From the IMG/VR virus record IMGVR_UViG_3300001765_000034, positions 20,150-84,149 of that record: a DNA stretch of 64,000 bases; one strand, 5' to 3'. The translations under genes were made by a program, and so were the position numbers. The DNA comes from a virus (Duplodnaviria > Caudoviricetes). The notes below the pieces were generated by a model, which searched no databases, was not told the origin of the DNA, and saw only the letters and a list, made by a program, of their open reading frames with translations. Numbering within the stretch: position 1 is the first letter of the stretch; every line of letters begins with the position of its first letter. Shown piece by piece: positions 24,483 to 42,856 of this stretch.

Positions 24483-26486
24483 ATGGGCGTAGATTTTTTT
24501 GAAGAACCAGACAGACCAACGAAAGTAAAAAAACCGGGGTCAACAACGCCAATACTTGACAATTTTTCGAGAGATTTAACTAAGTTAGCTGAAGAAGGAA
24601 AAATTGATCCTGTTGTTGGTAGGGATAAAGAAGTGAGACGGATCGCACAAATTCTTTCTCGAAAGAAAAAGAATAATGCCGTAGTAGTCGGTGATGCTGG
24701 AGTAGGTAAAACTGCTTTAATTGAAAAACTTGCACAGATAATTGTTAAAGGTGAATGTCCAACCAGCTTGATGGATAAAAGGATAGTATCACTAGATTTG
24801 ACATCATTGGTTGCCGGAACAAAATATCGTGGGCAATTCGAAGAAAGGATTAAAGGAATATTGGTAGAACTCACAGAAAATCCCCAAATTATTTTATTCA
24901 TCGATGAATTACACATGATGGTTGGGGCTGGAAATGCAAGTGGATCAATGGATGCTTCAAATATTTTTAAACCAGCTCTTGCTCGCGGTGAGTTACAATG
25001 TATTGGATCAACAACATTTGATGAATATAAAAAACACATCGAAAAAGACTCGGCATTAACTCGAAGATTTCAGAAGGTAACGTTAAAAGAACCTACACCA
25101 CAAGAAACAATTGAAATACTTCATAATCTTAGAGATTCATATGAATCCTATCATAAGGTGAAATATACTGAGAATGTGATGGAAACAATTGTTTTACTTG
25201 CAGGAAAATATATTACCGACAGGTCATTTCCGGATAAAGCAATTGATATTTTGGATGAACTTGGAGCTGAAAAAAATATTACTATTGAAATGCCAGCATC
25301 AATTGAAAATTTAAAAGAGAAAATTGAAGAGGTTAATCAAAAGAAAAGAGACGTAGTTAAAAAACAGGACTATGAAGTTGCTGCTCAATTAAGAGATGAA
25401 GAAAAGAGATTAGTTAAAAAATTAGAAATAGAAAAACATAAATGGGAAACGGATAAAGAAACAAATAAGAATCCAATATCCATTGATGATGTTTACTCAG
25501 TTGTTACAAGTATTACTGGTGTACCCATAGCAAAACTTGATAAGAATGAAACTTCAAGTCTTTTGACCCTTGAAAAACAACTAGGTGAAAAGATCATCGG
25601 TCAAGAAGAGGCAATCTCAACCATATCAAAAGCAATAAGGAGAAACCGTGTTGGTATTAAAGGTTCAAATAAACCGATCGGTTCTTTTATGTTTTTAGGA
25701 TCAACAGGTGTTGGAAAAACTTATCTTGCAAAAACAATTGCACAACTTTTATTTGGATCGTCTGATAATATTATTAGAATTGATATGAGCGAATATATGG
25801 AGAAACATAACGTTTCCCGTCTTATTGGCTCTCCTCCAGGTTATGTTGGATATGATGAAGGTGGACAGTTGACCGAAGCCGTAAAAAATAATCCGTTTTC
25901 TGTTATCCTATTCGATGAAATTGAGAAAGCTCATAAAGACGTATATAATATGTTTTTACAAATATTGGACGAAGGACGATTAACCGATTCGTTTGGAAGA
26001 AATGTAAATTTTACCAATTGTCTTATTATCATGACATCCAATATCGGAGCACAAAAAGTGTCTGACTTTGGAAGAGGATTGGGATTCACGCAATTAACTA
26101 GGAATCAAGAACAGGATAATAAAAAATCTATTATTTTAAAGGAACTTAAAAAACATTTTAATCCTGAATTCTTAAATCGTCTCGATGGACATATTATGTT
26201 TAATCCATTAGGTGACCCCGAATTAAAGAAAATTATCTCTATTGAAATTTTAAATCTTCAGAAAAGATTATTGGAAAAAGAATACATAGTTGAATTTCAT
26301 TCATCTGTGGAGGATAGAGTTTTAGGATTAAATACTGAAGAGAATTACGGAGCGAGACCTGTAAAAAGAATCATTCAAAACCTTTGTGAAGACTTCTTGA
26401 GTGACGAAATACTTAAAGGAAACATTTTACCAAAAATACCCATCACAATAAAATATGATAAAAAAGGTGAGTTATTTATAGAATAA
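24483..26486 (+). CDS. clpC: ClpC/ClpB-family AAA+ ATPase lacking the N-terminal Clp repeat domain
   Basis: Two NBDs (GDAGVGKT/FIDELH and GSTGVGKT/LFDEIEKAH), GTKYRGQFEER, LIGSPPGYVGYDEGGQLTE, UVR-type M domain KQDYEVAAQLRD. Confidence 0.9.
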   Translation: MGVDFFEEPDRPTKVKKPGSTTPILDNFSRDLTKLAEEGKIDPVVGRDKEVRRIAQILSRKKKNNAVVVGDAGVGKTALIEKLAQIIVKGECPTSLMDKRIVSLDLTSLVAGTKYRGQFEERIKGILVELTENPQIILFIDELHMMVGAGNASGSMDASNIFKPALARGELQCIGSTTFDEYKKHIEKDSALTRRFQKVTLKEPTPQETIEILHNLRDSYESYHKVKYTENVMETIVLLAGKYITDRSFPDKAIDILDELGAEKNITIEMPASIENLKEKIEEVNQKKRDVVKKQDYEVAAQLRDEEKRLVKKLEIEKHKWETDKETNKNPISIDDVYSVVTSITGVPIAKLDKNETSSLLTLEKQLGEKIIGQEEAISTISKAIRRNRVGIKGSNKPIGSFMFLGSTGVGKTYLAKTIAQLLFGSSDNIIRIDMSEYMEKHNVSRLIGSPPGYVGYDEGGQLTEAVKNNPFSVILFDEIEKAHKDVYNMFLQILDEGRLTDSFGRNVNFTNCLIIMTSNIGAQKVSDFGRGLGFTQLTRNQEQDNKKSIILKELKKHFNPEFLNRLDGHIMFNPLGDPELKKIISIEILNLQKRLLEKEYIVEFHSSVEDRVLGLNTEENYGARPVKRIIQNLCEDFLSDEILKGNILPKIPITIKYDKKGELFIE

Positions 26487-27833: not shown

Positions 27834-29057
27834 TTATAGCTTTATTGCTAGTATAAGCATATCGTCTACTTGGTCAAAATCACCCTGCCATGTGTTTAAT
27901 TTTTGTTCAAGTAAGTCTTTTTGATATGATAACCCCAAATGTTGAAACGACATTAACATTTCAATAAAATTTTTTTTCATTAATTTTTTATTTTTCGTTC
28001 CACCAAATTGGTCAACTACACCGTCACTGAACATATAAATTACGTCGCCAATTCGATATGGTATTTCTTGAGTTGCAAAGGTTTTTTTAATTTCTTTGTT
28101 AATTCCACCTATATTATATGGTTCGCCTTTGATTTCAACCATATCTTTATCCCTACTTCTATAAATTAATAATGGGCGGCTACATCCTGAAAAATATAAT
28201 TTCTTATGATTTTTGTCTATGGTAACGAATGCAATATCGATACCGTCTTGATACCCGCTTGAAACACCTTGTTTTAAAAATGTGGTTAGGTTTAAATCGA
28301 GTAACGATAACACATCTGTTGGATGGGTGAAATCATTTTCAGCAATTTCATTTAAGAAATTCGTACCAATCATAGATAATAATGCACCGGACACCCCATG
28401 ACCGCTACAATCTGCGGCGGTTACCATTACCTCATCGTCCTTTTTATAAAACCAATAGAAGTCACCACTTACAATGTCTTTTGGACGATATATTATAAAT
28501 GCATCCTTAAAATCTTTTAAAAGTATATCAATTTTTGGTAAAGTTACTTTTTGGATTCGTTCTGCAAACATAATACTTTGAGTCATTGATTTGTTTTTCT
28601 CGTCAATAAGACTATTTGCAGCGATTAACTCGTTGTTTAATTTTTCTAATTTTTTTGCTTCAGTAATATATTGTCGTTGAAGTTGTGCCGAATTAATAAT
28701 ATGAGGTAAATGAAGTAAATGGTCTTTTAATATGTAATCGTCCATACCTTCTTTAAGAAGTTCGATTGCAAATTCTTCCGGAATATCACCAGATGAGAGA
28801 ATAAAAATAACATTAGGATTTATACTTTTTGAATCGGCGAACGATTTAAACGAATTATAATTAGGAATAGTGTGTTCCGATATTACAACATCAGGATTAA
28901 CTCGTGTCAACGCATTTATAAAATCATGTCCAGTTTCACAATGGGTTATATGATGTGTATATCCAAAATTAACTAAAACCTCTTTAATTTTTTTCGCGTC
29001 TTCTTTAGAATTATCTAATATTATTATTTTTGTATTTGCTTTTACGTCATTAGTCAT
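27834..29057 (-). CDS. Receiver-domain plus PP2C/SpoIIE (RsbU-like) phosphatase
   Basis: REC fold N-terminus (PDVVISEH, DDYILK); PP2C motifs VSGDFYW, AADCSGHGVSGA, FSDGVVDQFGG, QVDDML; start placed at ATG 29057. Confidence 0.85.
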   Translation of the reverse strand: MTNDVKANTKIIILDNSKEDAKKIKEVLVNFGYTHHITHCETGHDFINALTRVNPDVVISEHTIPNYNSFKSFADSKSINPNVIFILSSGDIPEEFAIELLKEGMDDYILKDHLLHLPHIINSAQLQRQYITEAKKLEKLNNELIAANSLIDEKNKSMTQSIMFAERIQKVTLPKIDILLKDFKDAFIIYRPKDIVSGDFYWFYKKDDEVMVTAADCSGHGVSGALLSMIGTNFLNEIAENDFTHPTDVLSLLDLNLTTFLKQGVSSGYQDGIDIAFVTIDKNHKKLYFSGCSRPLLIYRSRDKDMVEIKGEPYNIGGINKEIKKTFATQEIPYRIGDVIYMFSDGVVDQFGGTKNKKLMKKNFIEMLMSFQHLGLSYQKDLLEQKLNTWQGDFDQVDDMLILAIKL

Positions 29058-29102
29058 ATTAATAAATACCATAATTGATGTCAAAGCAAAATTTATTTTT
29101 TT

Positions 29103-31532: not shown

Positions 31533-31579
31533 TTTAGTTCTCAATAAAATAAAAATAATTAAACATTTTTTAAAAAACA

Positions 31580-31611
31580 TTTGGCAAATCCAAAAAAATG
31601 ATTTACATTTG
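31580..31611 (+). promoter_or_regulatory. Bacteroidota sigma-A-type promoter of tRNA array 1
   Basis: TTTG at 31580-31583 and TACATTTG at 31604-31611, 20-nt spacing. Confidence 0.75.
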
Positions 31612-31662
31612 TACCATAATTGAGAAAAAACAAAATTTGAACATATTTAATATAAAGAAACA

Positions 31663-31761
31663 ATGAGAAATTTACTCGACATATTATTGGTGGCTGCAGC
31701 GGTTGAAGTCCTATTATGGGCTGATGAGGATGCACGAAAAAATGTCGGGTGTAAAATATAA
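31663..31761 (+). CDS. Leader peptide of tRNA array 1, MRNLLDILLVAAAVEVLLWADEDARKNVGCKI
   Basis: 32-codon ORF with an A-rich upstream region, overlapping attenuator segments 1 and 2. Confidence 0.7.
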   Translation: MRNLLDILLVAAAVEVLLWADEDARKNVGCKI

Positions 31762-31819
31762 CTATTTACATACATGTTCTACTTAAAGAACCCGACATCT
31801 ACCAAGAGTCGGGTTTTTT
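31671..31819 (+). promoter_or_regulatory. Four-segment transcription attenuator upstream of tRNA array 1
   Basis: 1 ACTCGACAT 31674-82; 2 ATGTCGGGT 31742-50; 3 AACCCGACAT 31789-98; 4 GTCGGGTT 31808-15 plus T-run; 1:2, 2:3 and 3:4 are all complementary. Confidence 0.75.
31789..31819 (+). terminator. Attenuator terminator (3:4)
   Basis: AACCCGAC/GTCGGGTT stem with inner TCT/AGA pairs, followed by a T-run. Confidence 0.85.
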
Positions 31820-31836
31820 GTTTTTAGGTATGTATT

Positions 31837-31848
31837 GTTCTTTGACAT
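31837..31848 (+). promoter_or_regulatory. boxA-like antitermination element
   Basis: GTTCTTTGACAT, identical copy at 34589, resembles rrn boxA (GCTCTTTAACA). Confidence 0.55.
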
Positions 31849-31859
31849 GATGGAAATTT

Positions 31860-31933
31860 AGTGCGTTAGTTCAGTTGGCTAGAATGCCGCCCTGTCACGG
31901 CGGAGGTCACGGGTTCGAGCCCCGTACGCACTG
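31860..31933 (+). tRNA. tRNA-Asp(GUC)
   Basis: AGTGCGT/ACGCACT acceptor, CCGCC-CTGTCAC-GGCGG anticodon arm, TTCGAGC T-loop; no encoded CCA. Confidence 0.95.
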
Positions 31934-32045
31934 CAATCTCAACCGAAAGTAAGTAGGTTACTGGTGAAGCGGGGGTGAGGACCCTAAGCTGATGGGTTCG
32001 AAGCCCACCAGCGCATGAAAAGCAAAAAACAGTTTGGGGATTATC

Positions 32046-32116
32046 GAGGCCGTCGTATAATGGCTAGTAGTACCGCCCTGTCACGGCGGAGGAGGGGTTC
32101 GAATCCCACGGTCTCG
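32046..32116 (+). tRNA. tRNA-Asp(GUC), second copy
   Basis: GAGGCCG/CGGTCTC acceptor, same anticodon arm, short variable loop. Confidence 0.85.
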
Positions 32117-32118
32117 GC

Positions 32119-32288
32119 TATTCTTTAGTGTAATTGAGTTAGGATTGAAAGGAGTCATGACCTGGAGATTACTATACGAAGAAACATCAATCCTGTAATC
32201 ACGGCCGGGGTTATTAGGGGAGATGATTTTTAGTGAGAGCATACCGGGCATGCGGCTCGGAGGTGAGGTTAGAGACCTTAAAGAATAA
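32119..32288 (+). ncRNA. tRNA-like element with about 100 nt inserted in the D-loop
   Basis: TATTCTT/AAGAATA acceptor, GTGT/GCAT D-stem, CCGGG-CATGCGG-CTCGG arm, TGAGG-TTAGAGA-CCTTA T-like arm. Confidence 0.4.
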
Positions 32289-32328
32289 AAAATACTGTGT
32301 TAGGTAAATGGTAATAAATGTTAAAACA

Positions 32329-32439
32329 ATGAAGAAGAAAGAAACGTCTGGAAATTCTAGACAAAAAGTAGATTTCAAAGTAATTCCAAAAGAAGAACTT
32401 GAAAAAAATCGAAGTAAGGCATATGATTACTTGATTTAA
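32329..32439 (+). CDS. Small basic ORF within tRNA array (36 aa)
   Basis: MKKKETSGNSRQKVDFKVIPKEELEKNRSKAYDYLI with an A-rich upstream region. Confidence 0.4.
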   Translation: MKKKETSGNSRQKVDFKVIPKEELEKNRSKAYDYLI

Positions 32440-32454
32440 GTATGGTATTTAAAC

Positions 32455-32528
32455 GCTGCGTTAGGCAAATTGGTTAAGCCGTCAGACCTTCAATCTGAAG
32501 ATTAGGGGTTCGACCCCCCTACGCAGTA
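32455..32528 (+). tRNA. tRNA-Glu(UUC), C33 variant
   Basis: GCTGCGT/ACGCAGT acceptor, TCAGA-CCTTCAA-TCTGA arm. Confidence 0.88.
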
Positions 32529-32620
32529 CGAGGTTCAGTGTGAAATAGAAAGGTTTCTGAGGTTTGTTCATACTGAGGTTCAGTATAACCTTGATTATAG
32601 GTCAAAAAAAATCTCGCCAC

Positions 32621-32692
32621 GCTCGGTTCGTCTAACGGTCAGGACAAATGGTTTTCATCCATTAAATAGGAGTTCGATTCTCCTACCGAGTA
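32621..32692 (+). tRNA. tRNA-Glu(UUC)
   Basis: GCTCGGT/ACCGAGT acceptor, AATGG-TTTTCAT-CCATT arm. Confidence 0.93.
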
Positions 32693-32735
32693 CTTTAATT
32701 TTTTGTATTCTCTTAGTATTTATTTTAAACATTAT

Positions 32736-32820
32736 GCTCCTTTAGCTCAGCGGTCAAGAGCACCTGTTTTACAAGCAGGAGGCGAATAGTATCACGGTGG
32801 TTCGAATCCATCAAGGAGTA
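32736..32820 (+). tRNA. tRNA-Val(UAC) with long variable region
   Basis: GCTCCTT/AAGGAGT acceptor, CCTGT-TTTACAA-GCAGG arm, 16-nt variable region. Confidence 0.88.
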
Positions 32821-32939
32821 CATACGGTTAGGACCGTTATAGCTACGGCTATTAGGGGTGGGATGTTCGCTGCTGACCACCCCTTTATTTTAATTATCCC
32901 ACAAATTTTATAGATAGATGAACAAAGAGATTAAATAAT

Positions 32940-33023
32940 CTCGAAGTGGCGGAATTGGTAGACGCGCTAGCCTAAGGAGCTAGTTCCCGAAAGGGAGTGT
33001 GGGTTCGAGTCCCACCTTCGAGA
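32940..33023 (+). tRNA. tRNA-Leu(AAG)
   Basis: CTCGAAG/CTTCGAG acceptor, CTAGC-CTAAGGA-GCTAG arm, TCCC-GAAA-GGGA variable arm. Confidence 0.92.
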
Positions 33024-33164
33024 CAAAAGGTTCATGACGGAACTAAGCAGATGTTGACCGCGTAACCTGTGCCGAGTGTTCTTGGATGTGAAGGAGTAAT
33101 ACCTTCAGACTCATTATGTGGATCTGCAAAAGCGTAATGGTTGAACTACTAAAAAGGCACAAAT

Positions 33165-33248
33165 GCAGACGTGGCGGAATTGGTAGACGCGCCAGACTTA
33201 GGATCTGGTGCCCGGAAGGGCGTGTGGGTTCGAGTCCCACCTTCTGTA
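33165..33248 (+). tRNA. tRNA-Leu(UAG)
   Basis: CCAGA-CTTAGGA-TCTGG arm, class II variable arm. Confidence 0.93.
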
Positions 33249-33303
33249 CGTTTAGACCGTTTAGAATTTTTATTAGTACTGAAGTAGCGTAGAAAATTCA
33301 CTT

Positions 33304-33375
33304 GGGGAATTCGTATAGTGGCTATTATAATTGCCTTGCACGCAATGGACGGGGTTTCGATTACCCCATTCTCCA
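33304..33375 (+). tRNA. tRNA-Ala(UGC)
   Basis: GGGGAAT/ATTCTCC acceptor with G3:U70, ATTGC-CTTGCAC-GCAAT arm. Confidence 0.92.
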
Positions 33376-33403
33376 CTTTGACGGTTCGGAAAGACGAACA
33401 AAC

Positions 33404-33478
33404 GCGGGTGTAGCTCAGCTGGCTAGAGCGTCTGATTTGCAATCAGAAGGTCGTGGGTTCGAAGCCCACTACTCTGCA
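33404..33478 (+). tRNA. tRNA-Ala(UGC), second copy with bulged acceptor
   Basis: TCTGA-TTTGCAA-TCAGA arm, G3:U pair, one extra nucleotide in the 3' acceptor strand. Confidence 0.8.
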
Positions 33479-33594
33479 CAGGAGGGGTAGATTTATCAGG
33501 AGTCCTATTGATACGGATGAATACCCAGCATGGTGTGGTTACTATTTAAAATGAAACCGTCAGCAAAACTACATACGATGAAAAAGTAACAAAT

Positions 33595-33674
33595 GGCTCT
33601 GTGGATTATGTAAACTGGCACAGCTAACGGGCTTAAACCCCGATCTTTTGTGGGTTCGAGTCCCACCAGGGCTA
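33595..33674 (+). tRNA. Atypical tRNA with UAA (Leu) anticodon
   Basis: GGCTCTG/CAGGGCT acceptor, CGGG-CTTAAAC-CCCG arm, normal T arm; 7-nt connector before the D stem; no long variable arm. Confidence 0.7.
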
Positions 33675-33680
33675 CAATTA

Positions 33681-33814
33681 TATTTCGTGGTGGAATTGGT
33701 ATACACACCTGACTGAATCCCAAAAATGGATTACCTATATGCGGGCTGGATCGGGCGTTTAAGTAGTAAGGTATTCTACGAAAGAAATTGCGGGTTCGAG
33801 TCCCGTCGAAATGT
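33681..33814 (+). tRNA. Class II tRNA body with about 50 nt inserted in the anticodon loop (intron-like or pseudo-tRNA)
   Basis: TATTTCG/CGAAATG acceptor, GTG-GAATTGGTATA-CAC D arm, GCGGG-TTCGAGT-CCCGT T arm; anticodon arm interrupted. Confidence 0.55.
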
Positions 33815-33822
33815 AATTATTC

Positions 33823-33902
33823 GGCTCTGTGGATTATGTAAACTGGCACAGCTAACCGGCTCAAACCCGGATCTTTTGTGGGTTCGATTCCCACCAGGGC
33901 TA
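33823..33902 (+). tRNA. Atypical tRNA with CAA (Leu) anticodon, twin of 33595-33674
   Basis: Same body apart from one T-loop base, CCGG-CTCAAAC-CCGG arm. Confidence 0.7.
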
Positions 33903-33944
33903 CTATATTTTTGATTTTTTCCATATTTATAATAAACTGAAAGT

Positions 33945-34121
33945 ATGTGGCAATATAAACGTATTGGATATCAATTTCATTTATTAAGAGACATGGAAGC
34001 TCAACTAAATAAAGATGGTGAGGATGGTTGGGAAATCATCTATTATACCGAAACAAAACCTGTAAAATTATCTGATTATTATGTCTCAGATATACTTTAC
34101 AAAAAATACGTCAATTGCTGA
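33945..34121 (+). CDS. DUF4177-like small protein
   Basis: MWQYK...LNKDGEDGWEII pattern; late motif at 33924; 3' end overlaps tRNA-Trp. Confidence 0.6.
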   Translation: MWQYKRIGYQFHLLRDMEAQLNKDGEDGWEIIYYTETKPVKLSDYYVSDILYKKYVNC

Positions 34122-34190
34122 GTGGTTAAAAGCGTTGGTCTCCAAAACCAATCTCGAAAGAGTTCGTGGGTTCGAATCCTACTTGGCGTG
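34108..34190 (+). tRNA. tRNA-Trp(CCA) with long variable arm
   Basis: ACGTCAA/TTGGCGT acceptor, G73, TTGGT-CTCCAAA-ACCAA arm, CTC-GAAA-GAG variable hairpin. Confidence 0.88.
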
Positions 34191-34307
34191 CAAAAATTTC
34201 CATCTAGTCTGTATTAACATTAACTATTAGAAATGAGGAGATTACATTAAGTTAATAATTAACTTAAATAAAAAATCTTTAATTTAATAAGAAAGTTTAA
34301 CTTTTAC

Positions 34308-34338
34308 TTGGTATTTATAATTTTATTACATATATTTG
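34308..34338 (+). promoter_or_regulatory. Promoter region of tRNA array 2 (host-type -7 box plus late motif)
   Basis: TTG at 34308-10, TATTTATA at 34312-19, TATATTTG at 34331-38. Confidence 0.7.
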
Positions 34339-34360
34339 TACAGAATTAATATTTGAAACA

Positions 34361-34441
34361 ATGAGAACTTTATTACATCAGCGCCCCCAAGGACAACCAC
34401 CAGTGGTTGAACGGGAGACTTGTGTTCTAAATTTTTCGTAA
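34361..34441 (+). CDS. Leader peptide of tRNA array 2, MRTLLHQRPQGQPPVVERETCVLNFS
   Basis: 26-codon ORF whose start context GAAACAATGAGAA is identical to leader 1. Confidence 0.7.
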   Translation: MRTLLHQRPQGQPPVVERETCVLNFS

Positions 34442-34500
34442 TTCGAGAGTTTTTAGATTAGACAAAAGAAACCCCGTTCAGTAATGAATGGGGTTTTTTT
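34383..34500 (+). promoter_or_regulatory. Transcription attenuator upstream of tRNA array 2
   Basis: 1:2 hairpin CAACCA/TGGTTG (34394-99/34404-09); 2:3 TGAACGGG/CCCGTTCA (34408-15/34473-80); 3:4 terminator. Confidence 0.72.
34469..34500 (+). terminator. Attenuator terminator (3:4)
   Basis: AAACCCCGTTCA-GTAA-TGAATGGGGTTT followed by a T-run. Confidence 0.85.
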
Positions 34501-34508
34501 ATTTAAAA

Positions 34509-34583
34509 CTGGGTGTATTGCAGATGGTTATACTACCGTGCCCTGGAAGCACGGGTCCGCAGGTTCGAATCCTGCCACCCAGA
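34509..34583 (+). tRNA. tRNA-Pro(UGG), C33/A37 variant
   Basis: CTGGGTG/CACCCAG acceptor, A73, CGTGC-CCTGGAA-GCACG arm. Confidence 0.88.
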
Positions 34584-34588
34584 CGATT

Positions 34589-34600
34589 GTTCTTTGACAT
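34589..34600 (+). promoter_or_regulatory. boxA-like antitermination element
   Basis: GTTCTTTGACAT, identical to 31837-31848. Confidence 0.55.
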
Positions 34601-34605
34601 TTAAT

Positions 34606-34692
34606 GCACCTGTATCCCCCTAGTCTTCGAAACTTTCGAAACTAGAGAGCGGTAATTGGATGAGAATATGGGTTCGAATCCCTTCAGGTGTA
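34606..34692 (+). ncRNA. tRNA-like element with rearranged arms and a UCG anticodon-like loop
   Basis: GCACCTG/CAGGTGT acceptor, TTCGAAT T-loop; CTAGT-CTTCGAA-ACT(AG) directly after the acceptor, 9-nt duplication TTCGAAACT, GGTAATTGG afterwards. Confidence 0.5.
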
Positions 34693-34698
34693 CAATTC

Positions 34699-34770
34699 GC
34701 ACCCGTAGTTCAATGGATAGAACACTAGACTACGGATCTTGAGATTGAGGTTCGAGTCCTCCCGGGTGTA
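34699..34770 (+). tRNA. tRNA-Arg(ACG)
   Basis: GCACCCG/CGGGTGT acceptor, CTAGA-CTACGGA-TCTTG arm. Confidence 0.9.
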
Positions 34771-34828
34771 CAATTATCGGTTAAATAACCTATAAATATA
34801 ATTTATCGGTTGTGGAGACGATAAATTT

Positions 34829-34913
34829 CGGGATGTGGTGTAGTTGGTAGCATACGTGTTTTGGGAACATGGGGGAACGCAAGTCATCGCAGGTTCGAGT
34901 CCTGCCATCCCGA
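34829..34913 (+). tRNA. tRNA-Pro(UGG) with long variable region
   Basis: CGGGATG/CATCCCG acceptor, CGTGT-TTTGGGA-ACATG arm with G37. Confidence 0.9.
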
Positions 34914-34916
34914 CTA

Positions 34917-35054
34917 AAGTTAATCGTCCGTCATATGAAGATTTAATAACAGAAATAAATATTTTTGGATACTCAGCAACTGGCAGAAAATATGGAGTAA
35001 GTGACGTGTCAATAAAAAAATGGAAAGAAAAATATGAAAAAGATTTAATAAATG
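34917..35054 (+). pseudogene. Remnant HTH domain of an HNH-type homing endonuclease
   Basis: Reading frame KVNRPSYEDLITEINIFGYSATGRKYGVSDVSIKKWK without its own start or nuclease domain, between tRNA-Pro and tRNA-His. Confidence 0.5.
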
Positions 35055-35140
35055 GTGTATGTAGCCGGTAATTGGTGTCCGACCAGCCTGTGAAGCTGGA
35101 ATCTGAAAAGACCATGTGGGTTCAAGTCCCATCATTCACC
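35054..35140 (+). tRNA. tRNA-His(GUG) with long variable arm
   Basis: G-1:C73 identity pair, CCAGC-CTGTGAA-GCTGG arm, TCT-GAAA-AGA variable hairpin. Confidence 0.88.
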
Positions 35141-35182
35141 CAAAAGCGTGATATTTTGATTTATCACTTTATTACGCGATAT

Positions 35183-35255
35183 TGTCTCGTAGTGTAATTG
35201 GTAACATGTCTGGCTCTGGACCAGAAGACTGGGGAATCGTACTCCTCCGAGACAA
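35183..35255 (+). tRNA. tRNA-Gln(CUG), atypical T-loop ATCGTAC
   Basis: TGTCTCG/CGAGACA acceptor, TCTGG-CTCTGGA-CCAGA arm. Confidence 0.85.
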
Positions 35256-35264
35256 CAACTATAT

Positions 35265-35338
35265 TGCCCTGTGGTGTAATTGGTTAACATACGGCACTTT
35301 GGATGCTGTGACTCAAGGTTCGAACCCTTGCGGGGCAA
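35265..35338 (+). tRNA. tRNA-Gln(UUG)
   Basis: TGCCCTG/CGGGGCA acceptor, CGGCA-CTTTGGA-TGCTG arm. Confidence 0.93.
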
Positions 35339-35344
35339 CAATAT

Positions 35345-35430
35345 TCTCCTCTGGCAGAATGGACAAATGCGCCAGACTTTGACTCTGGTACCCATATTCG
35401 GGTTTGTAGGTTCGAGTCCTACGGGGAGGA
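35345..35430 (+). tRNA. Class II-type tRNA with UUG (Gln) anticodon
   Basis: TCTCCTC/GGGGAGG acceptor, CCAGA-CTTTGAC-TCTGG arm, ACCC-ATATTC-GGGT variable arm. Confidence 0.8.
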
Positions 35431-35472
35431 CAAATTTGGAAATGTCAAATATTATACTTATCTTTGTCAAAT

Positions 35473-35556
35473 GCCGAGATGATGGAATTGGCAGACATGC
35501 AGCACTTAAAATGCTGTGGGCATTTGCTCGTGTGGGTTCGAGTCCCATTCTCGGTA
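35473..35556 (+). tRNA. tRNA-Leu(UAA), canonical
   Basis: GCCGAGA/TCTCGGT acceptor, CAGCA-CTTAAAA-TGCTG arm, class II variable arm. Confidence 0.95.
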
Positions 35557-35575
35557 CAATAATAAATGATTAGAT

Positions 35576-42047: not shown

Positions 42048-42449
42048 GGGGGTGAATTGACTTGATTTCAAGTATCAAGGATAAATTGCAAGTAGTCAGA
42101 TGTCATCTATGACTTTAATACACGGTGGTAACTTTTAGACGGCAACGTTTACAAAAACATGGAAATTGCAGGTTTACTTGCAACTTCTAACGTTTCAGTA
42201 GCTTAGGCGAACAAACGAGAGGGTCGGGGCACATGTACCTGGTAACAGAAGTGCTTAAGGTGTAATACAACCATAAAAGTGTTAAGAGTCTCGTTTGGGG
42301 TGCTACTTTATTATAAGTGAACCCTCCACAGTTTTTGGTAACGGTGGCAAAATAGGAACCGAATATTTGTCCGTTATGAATAACGGAATAAACTTGTAGT
42401 AATTTATTGTTGAACAGGAAAGACCGCGAAGCGATATCGCGCACCTCCA
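42048..42449 (+). ncRNA. ssrA: tmRNA with predicted tag (A)GNVYKNMEIAGLLATSNVSVA
   Basis: GGGGGTG/CACCTCC acceptor with G3:U70, 3' T-like arm CGCGA-AGCGATA-TCGCG, internal tag ORF 42141-42206 ending GCT TAG, length about 400 nt. Confidence 0.85.
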
Positions 42450-42451
42450 CA

Positions 42452-42856
42452 AATACTATCGTTCTTTACCATATAGGAGATTAAAAAATGACAGTAGATT
42501 TACTATCACTTATTTTAGGTATGGGTCTGGTGTTAGTTATTGCTTTTGCAATAGGTGGCGTCGTGGCTCTAGTTAAGGTAATGAGATTAGAACGTAACTC
42601 AAATAACATCGATATTGGAACTCAACAGCAACTCGATGATATTAGGAAAACTGTTGGTACAGAAATTGGTGAGATAGATCACAAAATCCAAAATCTTTAT
42701 AGAGATATGGATTCTCGATTCGATAAATTTTATAGTAAGATTATTCAGGAAACTAATCCAAAACAGAGGATACTGAATATGATAAATTCCGGTACTTCGT
42801 CGGATTCGACGGAAAATAGCCATAAAGAATAAATAAACTTAAAGAACGATAGTATT
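42452..42856. repeat. 17-bp perfect inverted repeat flanking ORF 42488-42832
   Basis: AATACTATCGTTCTTTA 42452-68 and TAAAGAACGATAGTATT 42840-56. Confidence 0.85.
42488..42832 (+). CDS. Single-TM coiled-coil hypothetical protein
   Basis: N-terminal hydrophobic helix, coiled-coil C-terminus. Confidence 0.7.
   Translation: MTVDLLSLILGMGLVLVIAFAIGGVVALVKVMRLERNSNNIDIGTQQQLDDIRKTVGTEIGEIDHKIQNLYRDMDSRFDKFYSKIIQETNPKQRILNMINSGTSSDSTENSHKE

Follow-up and report, generated by a model that had tools for sequence, protein, structure and literature searches.

In our study we analyzed a stretch of 64,000 nucleotides from the phage record IMGVR_UViG_3300001765_000034 (IMG/VR), hereafter called the window, and we conclude with good confidence that the region 31580-31847 is a working ribosome-mediated leader-peptide attenuator which gates the first of two tRNA arrays. 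This assignment rests on sequence comparison and on modelled RNA folding, and the phage would probably make the tRNAs of this array only when their cognate codons are read slowly. The record comprises 84 kb at an estimated completeness of 27% and the source is therefore a large phage; the GC content of the window is ~33%. Phage tRNA genes have been known for more than 50 years, and their regulation and purpose are debated. They are mainly proposed to serve codon compensation or to help phages evade defences that target tRNAs (PMC10264068). In literature searches aimed at attenuation of tRNA genes, no paper describing it was found.

An initial annotation of the stretch had proposed that nearly all codons of a short leader are read by tRNAs encoded downstream, in the manner of trp and ilv attenuators. 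Translation of the leader open reading frame (ORF) gave the 32-residue peptide that had been reported. Moreover, 20 of the 21 sensor codons encode Leu, Asp, Val, Ala, Glu or Trp, the only other one being ATA-Ile, and strict codon-anticodon matching of GTT/GTC and GCT among them presupposes extended U34 wobble. A stop-free stretch of 21 residues with at least 18 from the set ADELVW occurs only once in all six frames of the window, namely in this ORF, and the share of these residues expected from the long ORFs of the window is 0.33. The six Leu codons of the leader (TTA, CTC, TTA, TTG, CTA, TTA) are as had been described, and a tRNA-Trp(CCA) for its Trp codon is present in array 1. Four Leu anticodons had been expected downstream, of which AAG and UAG belong to called tRNAs, whereas UAA and CAA are carried within array 1 by non-canonical 81-nt tRNA-like genes. 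The four RNA segments were traced base by base and lie where the annotation had placed them (Table 1). Helix 2:3 consists of nine Watson-Crick pairs without a mismatch, and the stop codon (31759-61) starts 8 nt past segment 2, also as claimed.

The terminator hairpin formed by segments 3 and 4 has a predicted dG of -13.1, or -19.2 with its A:U extension, and the same terminator architecture was found in all of the related loci described below. Helix 1:2 comprises nine pairs including one G-U (hairpin dG -22.2), and the 2:3 hairpin has an energy of -14.7. For the duplex of segments 2 and 3 we calculated -15.7 kcal/mol (z = -3.3 versus shuffles), and in most relatives this duplex reaches z = -3 to -6 versus shuffles. 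We folded the nascent RNA ending at 31800, when segment 3 is out and segment 4 is not yet, with a 30-nt mask for the ribosome. With the A site on codons 2-22 the 2:3 helix was formed, and with the ribosome from codon 24 to the stop it was blocked. Co-transcriptional folding with a ribosome mask had been proposed along with the initial annotation, and it reproduced the expected switch logic. Stalled ribosomes leave 2:3 formed, the effective codons being 2-22 and not 4-24 as first stated, and a ribosome at the stop masks segment 2. The untranslated full-length RNA folds as 1:2 plus 3:4, which agrees with the termination anticipated for a leader that is not translated. The reading as a trp/ilv-type attenuator is thus supported, since the anatomical requirements are present, with helix 1:2 as a predicted pairing, and the relatives give independent support.

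From these features we propose the following mechanism. Host RNA polymerase would start at the sigma-A-type promoter of the Bacteroidota kind, with transcription predicted to begin near 31616, and a ribosome would translate the 32-codon leader, sampling at codons 4-24 the codons of the downstream Asp, Glu, Val, Leu, Ala and Trp tRNAs. When decoding is fast, the ribosome at the end of the ORF would cover segment 2, the 3:4 terminator would form and transcription would stop at 31814-25. At a slow codon, the stalled ribosome would hold segment 1 off segment 2, so that 2:3 could form upon emergence of segment 3 and the polymerase would read through in the absence of a terminator. The read-through RNA would carry a boxA-like element, which would probably recruit Nus factors, and the tRNAs of the array would be made. 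If there is no translation, 1:2 would form and transcription would terminate. The net effect would be a negative feedback by which the production of tRNAs depends on how fast their cognate codons are decoded. Leader translation, regulated read-through, Nus recruitment and the physiological signal are what we infer in this scheme.

Table 1. Features of the two tRNA array regions in the window
Feature	Positions	Strand	Description
Sigma-A-type promoter, Bacteroidota	31580-31611	+	-33 TTTG at 31580-83; -7 box TACATTTG at 31604-11
Leader ORF, 32 codons	31663-31761	+	A-rich start context, no Shine-Dalgarno; sensor codons 4-24 at 31672-31734
Segment 1 ACTCGACAT	31674-31682	+	Anti-antiterminator arm, within codons Leu-Leu-Asp-Ile
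Segment 2 ATGTCGGGT	31742-31750	+	Pairs with segment 1 or 3; copy of terminator 3' arm
Segment 3 ACCCGACAT	31790-31798	+	Terminator 5' arm; segment 2 is its exact reverse complement
Segment 4 GTCGGGTT	31808-31815	+	Terminator 3' arm, followed by T6-G-T5 to 31825
Intrinsic terminator	31790-31825	+	Between leader ORF and first tRNA; hairpin 31790-31816 plus U-tract
boxA-like element TGTTCTTTGACA	31836-31847	+	Between terminator and first tRNA; conserved after terminators
tRNA array 1	31860-34191	+	Asp, Asp, Glu, Glu, Val(UAC), Leu(AAG), Leu(UAG), Ala(UGC), Ala(UGC), Leu(UAA)-like, insert-bearing tRNA-like gene, Leu(CAA)-like, DUF4177-like small ORF, Trp(CCA)
Attenuator 2 (putative)	34331-34500	+	-7 box TATATTTG at 34331-38; leader ORF 34361-34441; terminator 34472-34493 plus T7
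tRNA array 2	34509-35557	+	Pro, Arg(ACG), Pro, His, Gln x3, Leu(UAA); boxA-like element at 34588-99

Related loci were collected along several routes. Six loci were found via a 245-aa protein encoded downstream of the arrays, and a DNA pattern made of the terminator 3' arm and the motif after it gave 37 further loci and thereby 24 distinct class-A leaders as well as several divergent ones. In addition, a structure-only scan searched for a hairpin with a T-run at most 260 nt upstream of a tRNA and took as leader the ORF with the best complement to the 5' arm of the hairpin. A further 22 loci (L004-L025) were obtained with the start-context pattern GAAACAATGAGAAMTTTA and were left out of the analyses. 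About 40 related phage loci show one common layout. A promoter of the Bacteroidota type is followed by a short ORF, at or near whose stop codon the 3' arm of the terminator is duplicated, and then by the terminator and the tRNAs. A search of INPHARED revealed similarity at the tRNA level only and no close cultured relative.

The composition of the leaders follows the tRNAs behind them. In the six loci found through the 245-aa protein the tRNAs are grouped as in the window, and each group stands behind a short ORF rich in its amino acids. Class A leaders precede Asp/Glu/Val/Leu/Ala/Trp arrays, class B leaders (QPQPQHQP-like) precede Pro/His/Gln arrays with or without Arg, and class C leaders (KYYYGKKSYKK-like) precede Lys/Tyr arrays. 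The structure-only scan added class-B leaders as well as a Ser/Thr/Ile/Asn/Cys class, which gives at least four disjoint classes (DEVLAW, PHQR, KY and CINST). When leaders were chosen without regard to composition and arrays were classified by their first three tRNAs, the residue set of the own array was the most enriched one in 37 of 40 leader/array pairs (1.8-2.6 fold on the diagonal, 0.1-1.0 off the diagonal), where the leaders are homologous within classes and the independent events, counted as classes plus variants, are nearer to ~8 than to 40. A binomial test on the whole peptide is weak where the arrays of relatives end at the contig end. The match extends to individual cases. Class-B leaders contain Arg only where an Arg tRNA follows (the window and L037), and in L037 Val is missing from both the sensor codons of the leader and the array. 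The leader SCLEASSEALA (L053) precedes Ala, Glu, Leu, Ser and Cys tRNAs, a Cys/Val/Leu leader (L052) precedes Cys, Val and Leu tRNAs, and a leader containing Met (L051) goes along with Met tRNAs in its array.

Besides, the relatives point to constraint on both the RNA and the reading frame. The Val-Gly pair of segment 2 is written GTC GGG in 23 of 23 class-A leaders, while Val elsewhere in those leaders uses all four codons; in the 24th class-A leader (L050) the string GTCGGG is retained although it is read in another frame. Judged by this codon usage, segment 2 is conserved as RNA and not as peptide. The distance from the end of segment 2 to the stop codon is 0-25 nt in nearly all relatives, and 14 leaders read GTC GGG TAA or TGA. 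In 23 of 24 leaders the ATG and GTCGGG are 75, 78, 81, 84 or 87 nt apart, all of them multiples of three at DNA identities of 49-99%, which argues that the leader frame is read. Covariation with the 5' arm of the terminator was seen for the nucleotides next to the 6-bp core of segment 2. This extension of helix 2:3 was paired in 108 of 175 cells over all classes, compared with 78 +/- 5 for permuted partners (none of 5000 permutations reached this value), and in 47 of 96 cells versus 32 in the GTCGGG/CCCGAC group alone (2 of 10000 permutations). The core of the helix also covaries between classes, with ATCGGG/CCCGAT against TTCGGG/CCCGAA and GAACGGG/CCCGTTC against GAATGGGG/CCCCATTC. A codon bias was observed in segment 1 as well, where Asp is GAC in 19 of 19 cases versus 54 GAT to 5 GAC elsewhere, and the Leu before it is CTC in 13 of 15 cases versus 11 of 139 elsewhere.

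The signals around the leader fit a host from the Bacteroidota. In this phylum the sigma-A consensus contains TAnnTTTG at -12 to -5, Shine-Dalgarno sequences are missing, and there are indications that operons of amino-acid biosynthesis are preceded by leader-peptide attenuators (PMC9723704). Of the 24 class-A leaders, 22 have TAnnTTTG no further than 90 nt ahead of their ATG. Because TAnnTTTG promoters and start contexts without Shine-Dalgarno fit Bacteroidota, the host of the phage is probably a member of this phylum.

Between the terminator and the array we identified a boxA-like element which recurs inside array 2 and at 42033-41, where it separates a -7 box from the start of a transfer-messenger RNA (tmRNA) gene. 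We examined 101 Bacteroidota 16S genes for which 350 nt or more of the preceding sequence was available. An exact copy of the 9-mer GTTCTTTGA is found 75-250 nt upstream of 16S in 46 of these rRNA-operon leaders, compared with 70 of 1442 background windows (4.9%). By this comparison the motif is a host-type rRNA-operon leader element. Its probable role is to bring in Nus factors of the host, so that polymerases which have read through can transcribe the untranslated array processively. The element would also tie the promoter of the leader to the array, because boxA acts in RNA that comes from an upstream promoter. A reading of GTTCTTTGACAT as a second promoter or processing site was rejected, as the same 9-mer occurs in Bacteroidota rRNA-operon leaders. 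The tmRNA gene itself (42048-42452, plus strand) is matched by Rfam RF00023 with 50.1 bits versus a gathering score of 47, was missed by ARAGORN and by the gathering scan of the whole window, and has the -7 box TACATTTG and the boxA-like GTTCTTTGA upstream.

A second element of similar build precedes array 2. Its leader has the start context of leader 1 and is rich in His, Gln, Arg and Pro (codons 6-14 read His-Gln-Arg-Pro-Gln-Gly-Gln-Pro-Pro), so that the two leaders of the window show reciprocal compositions. Segment 2 of this element, TGAACGGG (34408-15), complements the terminator 5' arm CCCGTTCA (34473-80), and in masked folding stalls at codons 2-12 allowed the 2:3 helix. Attenuator 2 would accordingly gate the Pro/Arg/His/Gln array.

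Several observations weigh against the attenuator in the form proposed here. The ATA-Ile codon of the sensor has no matching tRNA in the array, and the sensors of relatives contain Met, Asn, Thr or Lys that likewise lack a partner. For most tRNAs the sensor offers just 1-3 codons, spread over six isotypes, and on the analysis in PMC1183508 this spread leads us to expect a lower sensitivity to shortage of a single tRNA than that of the codon runs in his, leu and phe leaders. Wherever the ribosome is placed on the full-length RNA, the terminator has the lowest free energy, and therefore the switch must be kinetic, like classical attenuators; equilibrium folding of the full-length leader with the mask was dropped as uninformative for a switch of this kind, and folding of the nascent RNA was used instead. 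A weak point of attenuator 2 is that segment 2 is uncovered when the ribosome is at the stop codon. In about one third of the relatives the 2:3 helix consists of a 6-7 bp core only, and helix 1:2 shows codon bias but no covariation among relatives and is missing in the branch of L032, L035 and L063. Finally, a boxA-like element lies at most 400 nt downstream in only 5 of the 14 attenuators that had not been picked through the motif.

The attenuator could be real and nevertheless report something more general than the supply of its own tRNAs, namely translation stress or amino-acid supply as in starvation, exposure to ribosome-targeting toxins or antibiotics, or host shut-off. The arrays would then form a stress regulon and would not be self-regulated. 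A stalled ribosome cannot distinguish a missing from an uncharged tRNA, as has been established for the trp and his attenuators, and a multivalent sensor answers to any of six isotypes. Moreover, induction under translation stress has been described for a cyanobacterial tRNA array, via an unrelated route (PMC8421152). We nevertheless regard this explanation as rather unlikely, since every array has its own leader fitted to its isotypes, across four or more disjoint classes, a specificity that would be superfluous for a general signal, and extra tRNA gives no relief from amino-acid starvation.

Two further explanations we judge highly improbable. The ORF could be an ordinary gene for a small peptide, such as one of the membrane, and have a terminator of its own; the array would be transcribed independently and the codon match would be a by-product of a hydrophobic helix. 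The leader core of the window (LLDILLVAAAVEVLLW) does resemble a transmembrane segment, but sister leaders such as QPQPQHQP and KYYYGKKSYKK are non-hydrophobic and yet match their own arrays, the family conserves composition and not sequence, and the nucleotides of segment 2 are kept despite a frame change. Simple scans leave room for promoters nearer to the tRNAs, where the promoter/terminator scan used missed both attenuator terminators and is uninformative; no sigma-A -7 box was seen in 31825-31860, and the downstream boxA-like element needs a promoter upstream of it. Equally, the ORF could be untranslated and the region an RNA-only element, for instance a switch that binds a protein or a tRNA, a signal for processing, or a constitutive terminator that serves as insulation. 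Helices 1:2, 2:3 and 3:4 exist without invoking a ribosome, and the nearest precedent for tRNA sensing, the T-box, is RNA-only. An untranslated element is hard to reconcile with indels between ATG and segment 2 that keep to multiples of three over such divergent leaders, with a stop codon whose position tracks segment 2, and with an amino-acid composition, rather than a nucleotide sequence, that follows the array; in addition, no Rfam family including T-box reached its threshold. The ribosome-mediated attenuator remains our preferred reading.

Similar architectures have been described for the ilvGMEDA (Ile/Leu/Val), thr (Thr/Ile), trp, his, leu and pheA attenuators. They share with the phage element, as predicted here, a short translated leader with regulatory codons, the mutually exclusive helices 1:2, 2:3 and 3:4, a terminator ahead of the first structural gene and a stop codon placed so that the terminating ribosome covers segment 2, and in the ilvGMEDA and thr leaders several isotypes are sensed by one leader as well. 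In contrast to these enterobacterial systems, to which it has no sequence similarity, the phage element would regulate tRNAs, that is the molecules sensed, and not biosynthetic enzymes; its host-type signals are those of Bacteroidota, and the phage family has diversified into leader classes matched to their arrays. All described members of the attenuator class carry amino-acid biosynthesis or synthetase genes as cargo, whereas the cargo here is tRNAs. The structural features of attenuators that we tested for appear to be present, with helix 1:2 showing pairing and codon bias but no covariation, and the cargo is what would be new. A related case is pheM-pheST of E. coli, in which leader-peptide attenuation acts on the decoding machinery and provides feedback on charged-tRNA supply. 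This system differs in being cellular, not of phage origin, and in regulating a protein-coding operon, that of the synthetase for a single amino acid. A Phe-rich leader was not borne out for the tRNA-Phe genes of E. coli: the sequence directly before pheV in K-12 contains a promoter alone, and an ORF of this kind is absent.

The T-box riboswitch is also a transcription attenuator which reads tRNA status by codon-anticodon specificity and by the choice between terminator and antiterminator. However, it binds uncharged tRNA directly without a ribosome or ORF, and it controls synthetase, biosynthesis and transport genes. The T-box model of Rfam gave no match in 31540-31860 even at E <= 10. Among the leader families of Rfam the best score was that of Thr_leader with 21.4 bits versus a gathering score of 55, matching the terminator only, and in the whole window only tRNAs reached the gathering score. 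For the presumed host phylum, a transcriptome study of Flavobacterium psychrophilum (Flavobacteriia) points to leader-peptide attenuation, TAnnTTTG promoters and starts without Shine-Dalgarno, where attenuation is reported for amino-acid biosynthesis operons and not for tRNA genes (PMC9723704). The boxA/Nus antitermination of rrn operons is comparable in that TGTTCTTTGACA holds GTTCTTTGA and precedes untranslated RNA genes, here tRNA arrays and tmRNA. The phage copy differs in that it sits downstream of a leader-peptide attenuator and does not accompany all attenuators of the family, and its Nus binding is a prediction. The long tRNA arrays of cyanobacteria offer a parallel in staying silent until an impairment of translation turns them on, but they are cellular or plasmid-borne, not of phage origin, and the paper describing them makes no mention of an attenuator, leader or terminator (PMC8421152).

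The arrays themselves contain a number of unusual genes. ARAGORN and Rfam together called 18 tRNA genes at 31860-35557, with the second Ala(UGC) of array 1 called by Rfam only. The two non-canonical tRNA-Leu-like genes of 81 nt (33595-33675 and 33823-33903, plus strand) share 94% identity and were called neither by ARAGORN at default settings nor by Rfam. Their anticodon loops are CTTAAAC (UAA) and CTCAAAC (CAA), respectively, and they differ by a compensatory change in the anticodon stem (CGGG/CCCG to CCGG/CCGG); in both, the D region is enlarged and the variable region short. The canonical Leu(UAA) at 35473 is the last gene of array 2. Between the Leu-like copies lies a tRNA-like gene of 134 nt (33681-33814, plus strand) with an insert of ~40-60 nt, which scores 29.5 bits with the tRNA model of Rfam and is read as Ala(GGC) with a 39-nt intron in the intron mode of ARAGORN. 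Directly upstream of tRNA-Trp, a 58-aa ORF within array 1 (33945-34121, plus strand) shows a weak match to DUF4177 (E = 0.003, under the Pfam cut-off).

In bacteria long variable arms are normally confined to Leu, Ser and Tyr tRNAs. In the window, tRNAs of 84-87 nt with long variable arms were found on the plus strand for Val (32736-32821), Trp (34108-34191), Pro (34829-34914), His (35055-35141) and Gln (35345-35431). Several isotypes are represented by one normal and one long-arm copy, and the relatives are alike in this respect. Past the boxA-like element of array 2, a tRNA-like stretch that no tool called (34605-34690, plus strand) has acceptor-like ends CACCTG.../...CAGGTG and the T-loop GGTTCGAATCC; it could be the absent partner of the GGA-Gly codon in leader 2. 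In the relatives L051, L061 and L063, ARAGORN listed tRNAs with anticodon loops of 6 or 8 nt within the arrays, labelled ???(ca), ???(tg) and ???(ccaa).

In three relatives the gene for the homologue of the 245-aa protein has a tmRNA gene close behind it, and a Leu(UAA)/Leu(CAA)/Met array comes next (L027 11032-11400, L028 4031-4390, L029 11033-11392). About 400 nt upstream of the Leu/Leu/Met array, L028 and L029 have a small Leu/Met-rich ORF (MFYNLLLIMLLL...), which possibly represents an additional class of leaders. The window also encodes, upstream of its tRNA genes, a ClpB/Hsp104-like double AAA+ ATPase (24483-26486, plus strand) and a protein with a response-regulator receiver and a SpoIIE/PP2C phosphatase domain (27834-29084, minus strand).

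Taken further, the leader family raises the possibility, which we put forward tentatively, that these phages carry modular, re-programmable sensors of decoding speed. These could serve as tRNA homeostats and as counter-defence triggers which supply replacement tRNAs after the host tRNAs have been depleted or cleaved by tRNA-targeting immunity. As part of the same speculative proposal, each array might be an autonomous unit of promoter, codon test strip, switchable terminator, boxA and tRNAs, with the leader rewritten in evolution to fit the tRNAs. The Lys/Tyr and Pro/His/Gln/Arg classes are suggestive given the known targets of anticodon nucleases (PMC10264068, PMC11464382). If the attenuator works as proposed, it would constitute an autoregulatory loop on decoding capacity whose product is gauged by its own function. 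Textbook attenuation would be extended to non-coding RNA genes, and these phages would titrate each group of tRNAs separately. Read-through reporters could reveal whether codon mismatch, cleavage of host tRNAs or starvation is the trigger for phage tRNAs, and the leader family could be used as natural orthogonal sensors of the decoding rate for chosen codon sets.

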